From assembly GCA_964016885.1 (NCBI GenBank), contig CAXHJY010000479.1, forward strand, positions 1-18,897: 18,897 nucleotides of DNA. The letters are read 5' to 3'. The first letter of the stretch is position 1. Each line of letters starts with the position of its first letter. This document shows, one piece after another, positions 2,656 to 18,897 of this stretch. The position numbers were made by a program, and so were the translations under genes. The notes beneath the pieces were generated by a model. The model did not search any database, was not told the origin of the DNA, and saw nothing but the letters and a program-made list of their open reading frames with translations. The stretch comes from Eledone cirrhosa (lineage: Eukaryota).

Positions 2656-3093
2656 TCTCTCGCGTCAGATTTGGACAGGGGAAATAACTCTATGTCTGAC
2701 ATTGGATTTAAGCCAGGTAGAAGGGAAGCAACTCTGAAATGAAAACATTTTCCTTTGGAAAATAGCTAGGAGAAAAGAAGATATTGAAAGCTTGCTTTAC
2801 ATACCACTTATATTATCAATTCATTGTCAATATATATCAACATACATATTTACATAAACCCAGACAGACTGGTGTTAACAGGTATTAATCAGTGTAAAGC
2901 ACAGGTGGATGTTTATGTCAAAGTTTGTATGTTTATAGTAAACATTGACACTGTTTTTCTTATGTTTGCCATACTTATATAAAGTAAACACACATTTTCA
3001 CATAAATTCCCTGCTGTGCTTTACACTGATAAATGTCTGTTACGAGTCTGTTTATGTATATGTGAATATGTATGTTGATATATATTGATAACA

Positions 3094-3893
3094 AGTTACT
3101 AGCTGCAAAAGGTTTTACCCTCAAAATGAAAGGCAGACTGTATGATGCATACATACGAACATCAATGTTGCATGGTAGTGAGACCTGGACGTTGTATACA
3201 GAAGACTTGTGTAGATTAGAAAGAAATGAAGCCTGCATGCTCCAATGGATGTGTAATAGTAATATATGCGAACGGCAAATCATAAACGAATTGAGAGAGA
3301 GGGACTGAGCATAAGAGGAATCAAATGCTGTGTGCAGGAGAGAAGATTACACTAGTTTGGACATGTGATGCATATGAAGGATGAGAGTTGCATAAAAAAA
3401 GGTGCAGAGCGCTCAAAGTCGATGGAAACCTTGGAGTGGGGAGACCCAAGAAGACCTGGGATGAGATGATAAAAGCTGATCTTGCCCAAATGCACCTCTC
3501 AAAGGCGATGACACAGAACCGAGATCTCTGGCGTTACACAATAATACAGAAGACCCGACTTTCCACGGGTACAAGCCGAAGCTGAAACATATATACAATA
3601 TGCCCCTACCACCTCCCACTGTAAAGTGATCGTGTAGGTGTCACAACAAAAAATCACCCAGTCCACACTGTAATTGTGGTTGTGTAGGTGCCACGGTAAA
3701 AAGCAAACAGTACTAACTGTAACTGAGGTTGGCACTAGGAATGGCATCCAGCTGTAGAAACCAAGGTAAAATCAGTTCTGTATGAACAAGACATGGTCAC
3801 CTGACCTGGCATTTCTCACAACAGGACAACTCGTCTAACCCATGCTAGCGTGAAAGAATGGACATAAAACAGTGATAATTATGATGATGATGA
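3094..3893 (+). mobile_element. RTE-clade LINE 3' fragment (post-RT region, 3' UTR, (TGA)n tail), disrupted
   Basis: Reads KGRLYDAYIRTSMLHGSETW...LERNEACMLQWMC and GRPKKTWDEMIKADL across frameshifts and stops. Ends in ATGATGATGATGA. Homologous to 9121-10146. Confidence 0.92.
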
Positions 3894-4149: not shown

Positions 4150-4339
4150 AACTGTTTCTACTTTTGGCACAAGGCCAGCAATTATCCCAGTGCATTACTG
4201 GTACTTTATTTTATCGATCCCCGTAAGGAGGAAAGGCAAAGTTAACCTCGGTGGGATTTGAACTCAGATCATAAAGGGCCGTAACTCTATACTACAAAGC
4301 ATGGTGTCCGACTCTCTACCAATACTGCCAATCCACCAC
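4150..4339 (-). mobile_element. tRNA-derived SINE (short variant), full length
   Basis: Reverse complement of the 165-375 family, with GGATTTGAACTC (B-box) and ACCAATACTGCCAATCCACC (A-box head). Confidence 0.88.
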
Positions 4340-4361
4340 TAATATAATCCATCCCTCTCAT

Positions 4362-4504
4362 ATAATTGTTTCTATTTTTGGCACAAGGCCAGCAATTACG
4401 CAGTGCATTACTGGTACTTTATTTTATCGACCCCGTAAGGATGAAAGGCAAAGTTAACCTCGGCGGGATTTGAACTCAGAATGGCAAGGACCGTAACTCT
4501 ATGC
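4362..4504 (-). mobile_element. tRNA-derived SINE, 5'-truncated
   Basis: Closely similar to the 3' part of the adjacent copy. It keeps the B-box and lacks the A-box head. Confidence 0.85.
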
Positions 4505-5550: not shown

Positions 5551-5730
5551 TGATAGTATCGGTAGAGGGTCGGACGCCATGCTTTGTAGCAAAGAATTAC
5601 GACCCTTTATGGTCTGAGTTCAAATCCCGCTGAGGTTAACTTTACCTTTCATCCTTACGGGGTCGATAAAATATAGTACCAGTAATACACTGGGATGATT
5701 GCTGGCTTTGTGCCAAAAGTAGAAACAATT
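5551..5730 (+). mobile_element. tRNA-derived SINE (short variant)
   Basis: AGTATCGGTAGAG head, GAGTTCAAATCC B-box, GGGGTCGATAAAATATAGTACCAGT, and 3' end TGTGCCAAAAGTAGAAACAATT. Confidence 0.88.
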
Positions 5731-6974: not shown

Positions 6975-7200
6975 CAGATGACCGCTTGAATACGCAAGTG
7001 TAAATTTTTACCTCCACAATTTTTTTTTCATTTTCCCCTGTTCCTTCCTCTTATCACCCTTTACTTTCTAATTTCTTTTATTTCTAACTATCTAACTTGT
7101 GATGAAGGACTAGTGTCCGAAATATTAAGACACTCTTCCTGCTATTTCAAGTGTTAAATTAATACATTTCTTCCATGTAATGTACCGTTTGTTTTATTAT
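6975..7200 (+). mobile_element. Possible Penelope-like pseudo-LTR remnant with two degenerate hammerhead-like motifs
   Basis: gTGATGA-A-GGAC-tagt-GTCC-GAAA-TAT-TA at 7099-7127 and CaGATGA-C-CGCTTG-aatacg-CAAGTG-tAAA at 6975-7004. Both cores carry mutations. Confidence 0.45.
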
Positions 7201-9120: not shown

Positions 9121-10146
9121 TCATCATCATCATCGTTTAACGTCCATCTTCCACGCTAGCATGGGTTAGACGGGAGTTGTCCCACTTGATGCAAGGTTGG
9201 TCGGGTGACCGTGTCTTGCTCATATAGGACTATCTGGCAGGTTTTCTACGGCTGGATGCCCTTCCTAACACCAACCACATTTAGGGTATGGAACTGGGAA
9301 CTTTTTACCGTGTTACTTACACGACCACATTACAACGTGGACTGTGTATTTTTTTTGTTATGACACCTACACGATCTCGATCTCATTATCTCATTTATTT
9401 GGACTGGATGCTGTGGTACCAACTTTACAGAGAGAGGGTGGTGTTGGTGGGAGTGGGAGGATAGGGTAGGGGTAGTGGATTGGGGTGTATATTTGGTTAA
9501 GAGGTGCCTACTGACTGTAGGTTTCGCTTTGTACATAGGCAAGGCGGGGCTTCTGTATTACTGCGTGGTGCCAAAGATCTCGGTCCAGTGACATTGCTTT
9601 AGAGAGGTCCAAGTGTGTAAGGTCGGAATTTATCAAATCGTCCCAGGTTTTTCTGGGTCTACCTACTCTGTAACTTCCGTCAATTTTGATCGCCCTGCAC
9701 TTTTTTATACAGCTGTCGTTTTTCATGCGCATCACGTGGCCGTACCAACGTAGTCTTCTCTCAAGTAAACAGCATCTGATCCCTCTTATTCCTAATTTCT
9801 CACTTAGTTCATTTATGCTTTGCTGTTCACGTATGTCCAACGGAGCATGCATGCTTCGTTCCTTTCCATCCTACGCAGGTCCTCTGCACACAATGCCCAT
9901 GTCTCACTGCCATGTAATATTACTGTTCGTATGCAGGCATCATACAATATGTCTTTCATTTGTAGAGAGAAACCTTTTGTGGCCAACAGCGATATAAGCT
10001 CTCTGAACTTTTTCCATCCCGTTCTGACTCTAGCTACTGTACTTTCAGAGAACCCTCCACCACTGCTGATTTTGTCACCCAGGTAACGGAAGGTGTCCAC
10101 TATTTCTATAGAACCATCTGGGCAATGGAATGAGCTAGTATCCTGG
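9121..10146 (-). mobile_element. 5'-truncated RTE-clade LINE (RT thumb region to 3' UTR, (GAT)n tail), disrupted
   Basis: Reads DTFRYLGDKISSGGG...ARVRTGWKKFREL...LHGSETW and RRLRWYGHVMRM...GRPRKTWDDLINSDL. Plus-strand TCATCATCATCATC at 9121-9134 is the tail. Confidence 0.95.
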
Positions 10147-10147
10147 T

Positions 10148-10355
10148 GACACTTGCTACTTATGCTGTGGACACTTGCTACTCATGCTGTGGACACTTGC
10201 TACTCATGCTGTGGACACTTGCTACTCATGCTGTGGACACTTGCTACTCATGCTGTGGACACTTGCTACTCATGCTGTGGACACTTGCTACTCATGCTGT
10301 GGACACTTGCTACTTATTCCTGTGGACACTTGCTACTTATCCTGTCGACACTTGT
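10148..10355. repeat. 22-bp minisatellite, 9 copies plus a partial
   Basis: GACACTTGCTACTCATGCTGTG starts at 10148, 10170 and so on to 10302, then 10325, with a partial at 10347. Confidence 0.97.
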
Positions 10356-10503: not shown

Positions 10504-10825
10504 TTAACTCACTCAATATGCAAATTAGGCTGCTCAGCCGTTAATTTTCATAAGGAAAGTATATACTTTCGAACGTTCAACTATCTGGCAGATGGGTAAA
10601 CGGTGCTGATGATAGCTAACAAGCTTGAAACTAGTACATCGTTCCTGTGTCAGTGTTGAACAAAAAGGTGACGTGGTTGCCTTAACACCGTATGGCATAA
10701 ATTCAGGCTGTCCGATTTGTTGACAAACAAACGAACAAAGCAGGCGTTATAATAAACGTCGGCTAAACTGATGCGTGCATATATGTATGTGTACCTGTAT
10801 GCATGTGTATATATATATGTATATA

Positions 10826-10875
<50 letters not shown>

Positions 10876-10990
10876 TGCTACTGTACGTCTGTATACATAT
10901 ATGTATGTACGTATACATACATACTTACATTTAAGTAAGTGCCATACTAAGAGTGAGAAATGAAATTTCGTTTTCATTTTTTTTTTCAAC
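10504..10990 (+). mobile_element. Diverged monomer (copy A) of the hammerhead-containing repeat (retrozyme-like)
   Basis: Collinear with the 434-bp unit at 16467-16900, from TTAACTCACTC to GAAATGAAAT..CGTTT, with an internal (TA)n tract and many substitutions. Confidence 0.85.
10575..10661 (+). ncRNA. Type I hammerhead ribozyme (copy A), predicted cleavage after A10636
   Basis: CGGTG-CTGATGA(10606-10612)-T-AGCT-aaca-AGCT-T-GAAA(10627-10630)-CTAG-TA^CATCG. Helix I is CGGTG/CATCG, extended by CTGGCA/TGTCAG and GTTCAAC/GTTGAAC. Confidence 0.88.
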
Positions 10991-11101
10991 TTATATTTAT
11001 ATATATATATATAGGAAAATGTTTAACCCACTCTACTACACTTAGTATTGAGTATTCTGGTGCGTTATGGTCCATCTGGTTATTTACCACACTTCCTTCG
11101 T

Positions 11102-16143
<5,042 letters not shown>

Positions 16144-16236
16144 TACTAGTTTCAAGCTTGTTAGCTATCGTCAGCAACGTATACCTTCCTGCCAGATTGT
16201 TGAACGTATATACTTACCTTATGCATATTAACGGCT
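16144..16236 (-). mobile_element. Inverted 93-bp fragment of the retrozyme-like unit, ending at the hammerhead cleavage site
   Basis: Exact reverse complement of 16499-16591. It contains the core (TCGTCAG at 16168-16174) but lacks the 3' strand of helix I. Confidence 0.92.
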
Positions 16237-16529
16237 ACTCAGCCGTTAATATGCATAAGGTAAGTGCTAGACACTACGGCTTAATACGGGATGTTTGTTT
16301 ACAAACACACCGAGCATTATAATAAATGTTCGGTGAATCCATACGTACATATATATATGTGTGCATGTCGTGTACATACTTATATTTAAGTAACAGCCGT
16401 ACTAAGAGTGGGAAATGAAATATCGTTTCATTTTTTCTGTTTATCGTTTTCGGTGCACCCGGCCGATTAACCCACTCGATATGCAAATTGGGCTACTCAG
16501 CCGTTAATATGCATAAGGTAAGTATATAC

Positions 16530-16616
16530 GTTCAACAATCTGGCAGGAAGGTATACGTTGCTGACGATAGCTAACAAGCTTGAAACTAGTACAGCGTTCC
16601 TTTGTCAGTGTTGAAC
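16530..16616 (+). ncRNA. Type I hammerhead ribozyme, predicted cleavage after A16591
   Basis: CGTTG-CTGACGA(16561-16567)-T-AGCT-aaca-AGCT-T-GAAA(16582-16585)-CTAG-TA^CAGCG. Helix I is extended by AAGG/CCTT, CTGGCA/TGTCAG and GTTCAACA/TGTTGAAC. Confidence 0.9.
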
Positions 16617-16963
16617 AAACGAGCAACGGTGGTTGCTAGACACTACGGCTTAATACGGGATGTTTGTTTACAAACACACCGAGCATTATAATAAATGTTC
16701 GGTGAATCCATACGTACATATATATATGTGTGCATGTATGTATATATATATATATATATATATATACATACTACTGTACGTCGGTATACATATATGTATG
16801 TACGTGTACATACTTATATTTAAGTAACAGCCGTACTAAGAGTGGGAAATGAAATATCGTTTCATTTTTTCCGTTTATCGTTTTCGGTGCACCCGGCCGA
16901 TTAACCCACTCGATATGCAAATTGGGCTACTCAGCCGTTAATATGCATAAGGTAAGTATATAC

Positions 16964-17050
16964 GTTCAACAATCTGGCAGGAAGGTATACGTTGCTGACG
17001 ATAGCTAACAAGCTTGAAACTAGTACAGCGTTCCTTTGTCAGTGTTGAAC
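16964..17050 (+). ncRNA. Type I hammerhead ribozyme, predicted cleavage after A17025
   Basis: Identical to 16530-16616, 434 bp downstream (core at 16995-17001). Confidence 0.9.
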
Positions 17051-17244
17051 AAACGAGCAACGGTGGTTGCTAGACACTACGGCTTAATACGGGATGTTTG
17101 TTTACAAACACACCGAGCATTATAATAAATGTTCGGTGAATCCATACGTACATATATATATGTGTGCATGTATGTATATATATATATATATATATACATA
17201 CTACTGTACGTCGGTATACATATATGTATGTACGTGTACATACT

Positions 17245-17455
17245 TATATATATATATATATATATATAGCATATATATATATATATATAGCATATATATA
17301 TATATAGCATATATATATATATAGCATATATATATATATATAGCATATATATATATAGCATATATATATATATAGCATATATATATATATAGCATATATA
17401 TATATATAGCATATATATATATATAGCATATATATATATATAGCATATATATATA

Positions 17456-17491
<36 letters not shown>

Positions 17492-17509
17492 CATATATAT
17501 ATATATATA

Positions 17510-17540
<31 letters not shown>

Positions 17541-18378
17541 GCATATATATATATATAGCATATATATAGCATATATATATATATATAGCATATATATAGC
17601 ATATATATATATATATAGCATATATATATATATATAGCATATATATATATATAGCATATATATATATATATATATATATAGCATATATATATATATAGCA
17701 TATATATATATATATATAGCATATATATATATATATATATAGCATATATATATATATATAGCATATATATATATATAGCATATATATATATATATATATA
17801 TAGCATATATATATATATATATATAGCATATATATATATATATATAGCATATATATATATATATAGCATATATATATATATATATATATATATAGCATAT
17901 ATATATATATATATATATAGCATATATATATATATAGCATATATATATATATATATAGCATATATATATATATATATATATAGCATATATATATATATAG
18001 CATATATATATATATATATAGCATATATATATATATATAGCATATATATATATATATAGCATATATATATATATATAGCATATATATATATATATATATA
18101 GCATATATATATATATATAGCATATATATATATATATATATAGCATATATATATATATATAGCATATATATATATATATATAGCATATATATATATATAT
18201 ATATATAGCATATATATATATATATATATAGCATATATATATATATATATATATAGCATATATATATATATATAGCATATATATATATATATATATATAG
18301 CATATATATATATATATATATATAGCATATATATATATATATATATAGCATATATATATATATATATATATATATAGA

Positions 18379-18420
<42 letters not shown>

Positions 18421-18681
18421 CATATATATATATATATATATATAGCATATATATATATATATATATAGCATATATATATATATATATATAGCATATATAT
18501 ATATAGCATATATATATATATATATATAGCATATATATATATATATAGCATATATATATATATATATAGCATATATATATATATATATAGCATATATATA
18601 TATATATATAGCATATATATATATATATATATATATAGTATATATATATATATATATAGCATATATATATATATATATATA

Positions 18682-18712
<31 letters not shown>

Positions 18713-18897
18713 GCATATATATATATATATATATATAGCATATATATATATATATATAGCATATATATATATATATATATAGCATATATATATATATATA
18801 TATATAGCATATATATATATATATAGCATATATATATATATATAGCATATATAGCATATATATATATATATAGCATATATATATATATATAGCATAT
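17245..18897. repeat. Second GCA(TA)n array, same polarity, running off the window end
   Basis: TAGCAT-punctuated (TA)n. It begins where the last 434-bp unit breaks off at TACTTATAT. Confidence 0.97.

Follow-up and report, generated by a model that had tools for sequence, protein, structure and literature searches.

The analysed window is a stretch of 18,897 nt from Eledone cirrhosa (the whole of contig CAXHJY010000479.1, forward strand), and carries two insertions of a short, ribozyme-bearing repeat, a near-monomer (copy A) and a tandem insertion (insertion B). Their features, in window coordinates, are as follows.

10504..10994 (+): copy A, a near-monomer belonging to the young A subfamily (Ay), with TA-rich runs on both flanks
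10508..10514 and 10951..10957 (+): long-range stem CUCACUC/GAGUGAG; lineage B shows a double change from U-A to C-G
10575..10661 (+): rod that extends helix I (GUUCAAC...GUUGAAC) and pairs the sequences flanking the cleavage site
10601..10641 (+): type I hammerhead of copy A, with helix I CGGUG/CAUCG and core CUGAUGA
10665..10683 (+): hairpin AAGGUGAC/GUUGCCUU; all subfamilies keep a hairpin here despite a register shift
10689..10697 and 10940..10947 (+): long-range stem CGUAUGGCA/UGCCAUAC; C-G to U-A double change in Ay
10743..10760 (+): hairpin with an AUAAUA loop; both-sided changes in five of the nine pairs of the helix
10775..10875 (+): length-variable internal (TA)n/(RY)n block, masked when selection was tested
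11105..18897 (unstranded): (TA)nGC satellite, the insertion site of B, which separates A from B
16143..16236 (-): inverted arm of insertion B, joined to the satellite and ending at the predicted cleavage site (GUA|C)
16225..17247 (+): insertion B, of the young By subfamily, made up of two 434-nt tandem units and a partial one

Ribozyme cores occur in the window at 10606, 16561 and 16995 on the forward strand and at 16174 on the reverse strand, those at 16561 and 16995 lying in insertion B, the 3' end of which reads ..CATACTTAT. Copy A passes through the predicted cleavage site and ends at a preferred 3' end (..CAACTTAT). As it is approximately 22 nt short of a monomer and contains a single ribozyme, copy A by itself would not release a unit-length RNA. 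The two copies share 307/374 nucleotides (82 % identity with TA runs collapsed), and all of the motifs cited in the original prediction are present in A and B where it had placed them. Copy A had there been regarded as a diverged copy; it is instead a young member of its own lineage, with three differences from its subfamily consensus, of which the one outside the TA block breaks a stem pair. The core difference between A and B is confined, as predicted, to position N7 (CUGA(U/C)GA), with helices II and III identical, and the hairpins lie at 10665, 10716 and 10743 in A and at 16622, 16663 and 16681 in B. By contrast, the reading of TTTGT-tg-ACAAA as a change in the loop only does not hold, given that a 2-nt loop is impossible and the element folds with a 4-nt loop; the homology of this region is moreover ambiguous, since lineage A grew it by local duplications. 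When compared with shuffled sequences, the ribozyme strand folds with z = -3.0 (A) and -3.5 (B), and the opposite strand with z = -1.5 (A) and -2.9 (B). An apparent terminal redundancy at 11023 was rejected, as the sequence belongs to another repeat; positions 11026-11103 of the window hold a fragment of approximately 78 nt of a common repeat that is unrelated to the retrozyme and is matched at 83-92 % by dozens of the retrieved flanks.

The ribozyme has the CUGANGA...GAAA...UH core and the helices I to III of a type I hammerhead, with helix I open. In copy A, a 4-bp helix II (loop AACA) is closed by U10.1·U11.1 and followed by GAAA, helix III is the palindrome ACUAGU, and cleavage is predicted after GUA (10636|10637). 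The U·U takes the place of the closing pair G10.1-C11.1 and is non-canonical, but is a known natural variant; hammerheads closed in this manner have been described (Perreault et al. 2011, PMC3088659). An Rfam search with the ribozyme returned a match to Hammerhead_HH9 below threshold only (18.5 bits against a gathering value of 52; E = 0.017), while among the matches listed for the whole window there were only microsatellite-driven miRNA matches. In the predicted lowest-energy fold of the monomer the core CUG pairs with UAG, which would be inactive. A double hammerhead appears feasible in a dimer, at a calculated 4.9-6.0 kcal/mol above the free lowest-energy fold, and these modelled energies are in line with the dimer-dependent cleavage of motifs with a short helix III (PMC4209133, PMC7229834). 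Eight of nine Xenopus retrozyme dimers reportedly remained uncleaved in vitro (bioRxiv 2026.07.22.740005).

The units are short, tandemly arranged and free of ORFs, and every one of them has a type I hammerhead. Together with the many dispersed loci and the highly self-paired monomer (z of -3.0 and -3.5), these are the features of non-LTR retrozymes, whereas the LTR retrozymes of plants carry type III hammerheads in their LTRs, together with a PBS and PPT. The repeat (~420-480 nt) is thus probably a non-autonomous non-LTR retrozyme, an element of a known kind, and a probability of roughly 0.8 is given to the explanation as a whole, namely that of a non-autonomous non-LTR retrozyme which is mobilised by a Penelope-like element (PLE) and selected for its fold. 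Both the retrozyme class and the hypothesis of PLE mobilisation have already been published. In metazoan non-LTR retrozymes (Cervera & de la Peña 2020, PMC7229834) circular RNAs were demonstrated, while for the present family a circle is proposed; this family differs further in its 420-480-nt monomer, internal TA block, U10.1·U11.1, resolved ladder of subfamilies and number of cores (at least 26,671). Neither octopus nor cephalopod is mentioned in the text of that article, and the words ribozyme, hammerhead and retrozyme are all absent from the main text of an Octopus vulgaris repeat annotation (PMC13282606). The hammerheads of PLE pseudo-LTRs (Cervera & de la Peña 2014, PMC4209133) share the short palindromic helix III and the predicted need for a dimer, and include families with covariation within genomes. 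In contrast to these, the present ribozyme has no bulge before position 10.1 and no G10.1-C11.1, and is unattached to an ORF in the junctions read.

A search of the 3.0-Gb genome with copy A gave 1,255 candidates, the best 40 of which, the ones scored, are ~100 % identical to it, with many of these 40 found in arrays with a period of ~479. Exact cores number at least 26,671 genome-wide (13,887 with loop AACA and 12,784 with loop AADA), compared to none in a backwards control. The sampled loci are the first places returned, nearly all on a single contig (C1), with one copy taken per locus. The alignment comprised 157 copies, to which 23 older copies were added later, and fifteen subfamilies were delimited by hand on a FastTree tree, with two loci (L064 and L094) left ungrouped. 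Copies diverge from the consensus of their subfamily by 0.4-4.6 %, and the subfamilies are arranged in two ladders. The oldest (P, Q and O; ~3-5 % from consensus) are the source of lineage A (C, Aoo, Ao, Am and Ay) and lineage B (Bo, Bi, Bm and By; By 0.4 %), with copy A of the window belonging to Ay and insertion B to By. A fold is shared across thirteen consensuses, with some hairpins shifting register between subfamilies, and in Bm and By one arm of the GAAAGU/ACUUUC hairpin is gone through an 8-nt deletion. CUGANGA, GAAA and the helix III palindrome are constant in 15/15 consensuses, where the later subfamilies had been located through the core and P through its flanks, with the motifs still there. 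Two or more cores occur in 72/155 loci. In addition, one array (G000:C1:51772498-51791725) has more than thirty exact B-type cores over at least 19 kb, with a period of ~428.

The original prediction of a G·U to U·G double swap in helix I between A and B is correct for the end states, with pair 3 being G·U in A (CGGTG at 10601 and CATCG at 10637) and U·G in B (CGTTG at 16556 and 16990, with CAGCG), but not as a single event, given that lineages A and B changed separately from an ancestral G·U. Pair 3 is G·U in P (13/17 copies), A-U in C (11/13), G·U in the later A subfamilies and U·G in By. The ancestral state is G·U; lineage A passed from it to A-U and back to G·U, and lineage B reached U·G, probably through a rare U·U. 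Genome-wide, the old core occurs with U·G (5,281 matches), A-U (2,156), U·U (210) and A·G (77) at this pair. Of 25 U·U matches, five occur on the ancestral O1 background, two on O2 or C and eighteen on B; thirteen of the latter eighteen have a sibling in the same array with a G on the 3' side, and look like later mutations. These counts suggest that the mismatched intermediate was real, with few copies left. Variation among the older subfamilies extends to core positions 10.1, 11.1 and 17. P has C·A at 10.1·11.1 and GUU at the cleavage site, Q combines U·U with GUU, and U·U and GUA are found in all later subfamilies; the intermediate between C·A and U·U, C·U, was found in one copy. GUA is cleaved better than GUU. 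U·U has been reported as the most active mispair at the hammerhead closure (PMC3088659), and while the natural U-U closure is common to that report and this repeat, its origin from C·A is here visible in the older subfamilies.

Selection on structure was assessed by comparing fixed changes, i.e. those between successive consensuses, which have passed through retrotransposition, with private changes, the singletons of a copy which arose later. For both, only the fold predicted for the parent consensus served as the reference, with the TA block, the core and sites adjacent to indels left out, and scoring removed twelve indel-adjacent changes, eleven duplicates and one change with a gapped partner. 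Fixed changes fell at unpaired sites in 47 cases, kept a pair in 30 (16 single changes and seven doubles) and broke one in 18, compared to 244, 158 and 349 private changes, respectively. The ratio of kept to broken pairs thus differs between fixed (30:18) and private (158:349) changes (P = 2e-5), also when each double is counted once (23:18; P = 0.0017), outside the ribozyme rod (28:15 versus 130:277; P = 3e-5), and when rooted on P without helix I pair 3 or CpG sites (25:17 versus 135:347; P = 7e-5), pair 3 being left out of the last test because some loci had been chosen for mismatches there. By permutation, 0.66 double changes would be expected (maximum 4 in 5000) where seven were observed, one of which reverses another, and 54±5 pair-breaking changes where 20/119 were observed. 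Two of the seven doubles, overlooked in the original prediction, are long-range and span ~250 and ~440 nt in copy A. Among 21 representatives, 10/118 pairs vary on both sides (5/500 shuffles) and pair-type diversity is not above that of the shuffles (426/500), with the control in both cases ignoring relatedness. The asymmetry between G·U and A·C is not significant (fixed 11:3, private 124:108; P = 0.096).

Selection on RNA structure is thus supported beyond the ribozyme, by a test of a kind that comparing just two copies would not have allowed, so that the body of the RNA can be regarded as functional rather than as a spacer. It is strong but not absolute, with about a fifth of the fixed changes breaking pairs, and its predicted extent, across the whole monomer, was put too strongly, since 18 of the 95 scored fixed changes break a pair of the parent and Bm and By have lost a hairpin arm. 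The paired changes might also have arisen on the DNA, where template switching between quasi-palindromic arms, or their conversion, would repair them with no selection on the RNA; this would suit the many stems that are local hairpins, the better-than-shuffled folding of both strands in B and a G·U bias of only P = 0.096. Such repair should, however, touch private mutations too, and 349/507 of these at paired sites break the pair; it would have to act over the ~250 and ~440 nt spanned by two of the doubles, and it would not favour the 16 fixed single-side changes between G·U and Watson-Crick pairs. DNA-level repair is accordingly considered highly improbable as the source of the pattern. In the main texts of the mostly openly readable papers surveyed, the supplements of which may list the family, no prior comparison of fixed and private changes with respect to structure was found, nor a paper on compensatory change at the level of subfamilies.

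The insertions are located in (TA)n, and have the microsatellite target, TA flanks and, often, the inverted arm of PLE-type insertions. Tandem and inverted insertion in microsatellites has been described as a PLE trait, and (TA)n targeting as one of the Hydra clade (PMC8557442). An inverted arm occurs in 83/179 loci. Target-site duplications are indiscernible within (TA)n. That two subfamilies had inserted within 6 kb of each other was borne out, with A and B 5.1 kb apart, and is unremarkable as (TA)n is targeted and other sampled loci also hold two (e.g. L086 and L094). Approximately 130 of the 183 mapped 3' ends (top 25 end sequences) cluster at two internal sites that are rich in U/A and lie 200-320 nt beyond the cut. 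A single end of the 183, that of the inverted B arm in the window, lies at the cleavage site, and priming at the cleaved 3' end was thus rejected as the rule. Among 30 loci selected as carrying an altered base at the cut none was 5'-truncated there, compared to ~7/30 at a control site 6 nt downstream. With ends at internal sites and no 5' truncation at the cut, the template would have been continuous across it, either as a circle or as an uncleaved multimer. The latter, a linear multimer with a weak or vestigial ribozyme and a fold kept for recognition by the reverse transcriptase (RT) only, bears on the cleavage and circle step alone. It would account for insertions that pass through the cleavage site, for the predicted misfolding of the core in the monomer and for the spread of the oldest subfamily with C·A and GUU, but not readily for the constancy of the core motifs and the helix III palindrome in all fifteen consensuses, P having been found through its flanks and the later subfamilies through the core, or for the B arm that stops exactly at the cut. 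An uncleaved template is therefore rather unlikely.

A candidate for the mobilising element is a PLE that combines an RT-type ORF and a CxCX5C linker with a hammerhead at its 3' end, helix III of which is palindromic. It looks recently active, as the best 40 of its 1,910 candidate copies, the ones scored, are 99-100 % identical. With the Hydra clade of EN+ PLEs (Craig et al. 2021, PMC8557442) it shares the CxCX5C linker, the hammerhead at the 3' end, insertion in (TA)n and a C-terminal endonuclease-like region with CxxC and CxH; the candidate is provisionally placed in this clade by its motifs, and its ORF has no match in Pfam or NCBIfam. In two of 179 loci the retrozyme is fused to this PLE with no TA run between them. 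A retrozyme array directly adjoins the PLE ORF in one (L078), and a fragment of the ORF adjoins the 5' end of an Ay monomer in the other (L075). Nested insertion was rejected for both loci. The mobilisation of vertebrate retrozymes by PLEs has been proposed (Li et al., bioRxiv 2026.07.22.740005), with monomers, dimers and multimers as observed here; their link was drawn from co-occurrence and pLTR homology, whereas here it is drawn from two fused insertions, with no sequence homology detected between the repeat and the one PLE compared.

The two fusions could instead have resulted from deletions between neighbours, with the RT supplied by another PLE (e.g. a Neptune/Nematis-like one) or by a LINE. 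The same PLE lies near ten other loci at a distance of at least 115 nt, (TA)n sites are common to several PLE families, and the overlap of 0-1 nt at the fusion junctions fits either process. Against deletion, both fusions have the PLE 3' end as one outer end and a preferred retrozyme end as the other, and neither of the interrupted elements resumes on the far side. For the identity of the partner, which is the only step concerned, this alternative comes close to even odds. A further possibility is that the repeat represents the pseudo-LTR of an unsampled autonomous PLE and the arrays its 5'-truncated ends, given that both the inverted arms and the (TA)n targets are characteristic of PLEs (PMC8557442), and that 24/57 Xenopus retrozyme families match transposable elements at their termini, nearly all of these PLEs (bioRxiv 2026.07.22.740005). 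However, PLE-like ORF matches were found in only 30/267 loci (overlapping and not independent), none of the approximately ten junctions read has the repeat as the 3' repeat of the ORF, with the PLE ends carrying other hammerheads, and the arrays are head-to-tail monomers devoid of coding sequence. A pseudo-LTR origin is thus improbable, and the Hydra-type PLE is retained as the candidate mobiliser of a separate retrozyme.

Several other elements share these targets. PLE ends with a GIY-YIG-like ORF and hammerheads of their own occur in the same TA runs at three loci (L100, L021 and L061), and are presumably Neptune/Nematis-like. Further families of U10.1·U11.1 hammerheads are found in (TA)n (L041/L042, also L099, L002, L022 and L085), and the tandem unit with an inverted arm at L042 represents a second retrozyme-like family. 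At L096:3500-3560 a retrozyme arm directly adjoins, with no intervening TA run, fragments of other repeats that target (TA)n, which may reflect further template jumps.

A pathway can be proposed in which tandem copies are transcribed and two hammerheads pair via the palindromic helix III, cut after GUA and release monomers of ~430-480 nt. The helix I rod would then keep the ends together for ligation into a compact, multi-stem circular RNA. A PLE protein with RT and GIY-YIG domains, most likely of the young Hydra-type family, may nick (TA)n, with the RT priming at one of the two U/A-rich sites of the RNA and copying around the circle or along a multimer. Such copying would yield tandem insertions that are permuted and in many cases carry an inverted second arm, and the fusions of PLE and retrozyme would reflect template jumping by the Hydra-type RT. 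As only correctly folding RNAs would found subfamilies, the fold would be preserved by the changes that become fixed, whereas copies once inserted would decay neutrally. The most specific form of this proposal is that a circular ribozyme RNA uses a helper with which it has no sequence kinship, a Hydra-clade Penelope element whose RT copies it by internal priming and template jumps, and that the genome records its stepwise optimisation, with stems repaired by double changes and the core passing from C·A/GUU to U·U/GUA. This is advanced tentatively, and somewhat against the odds. If true, an RT partner would be named for the first time for an animal retrozyme, and a dated series would be available in which selection at the RNA level could be tested. 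On two questions, that of the enzyme responsible for inserting animal retrozymes and that of a circular template, the family offers a candidate enzyme and ends that map the priming sites, while its fifteen natural subfamily states allow cleavage and fold to be compared.

The remainder of the window holds further repeats. A degenerate hammerhead-like motif (GUGAUGA-AGGAC-UAGU-GUCC-GAAAU) at 7095-7200, in a repeat shared with L144, L162, L157 and L173, is probably a decayed PLE end. Two decayed LINE RT ends, which we take to be RTE-like, are located at 3066-3560 (+) and 9508-10181 (-), the second interrupted by a 22-nt tandem repeat (10148-10354). Copies of a SINE-like repeat occur in both orientations at 156-313, 4219-4504 and 5555-5692, with tails that presumably resemble octopus repeats. 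Finally, minisatellites of 37 and 48 nt with a strong G skew occupy 819-1690 and 1952-2529, respectively.
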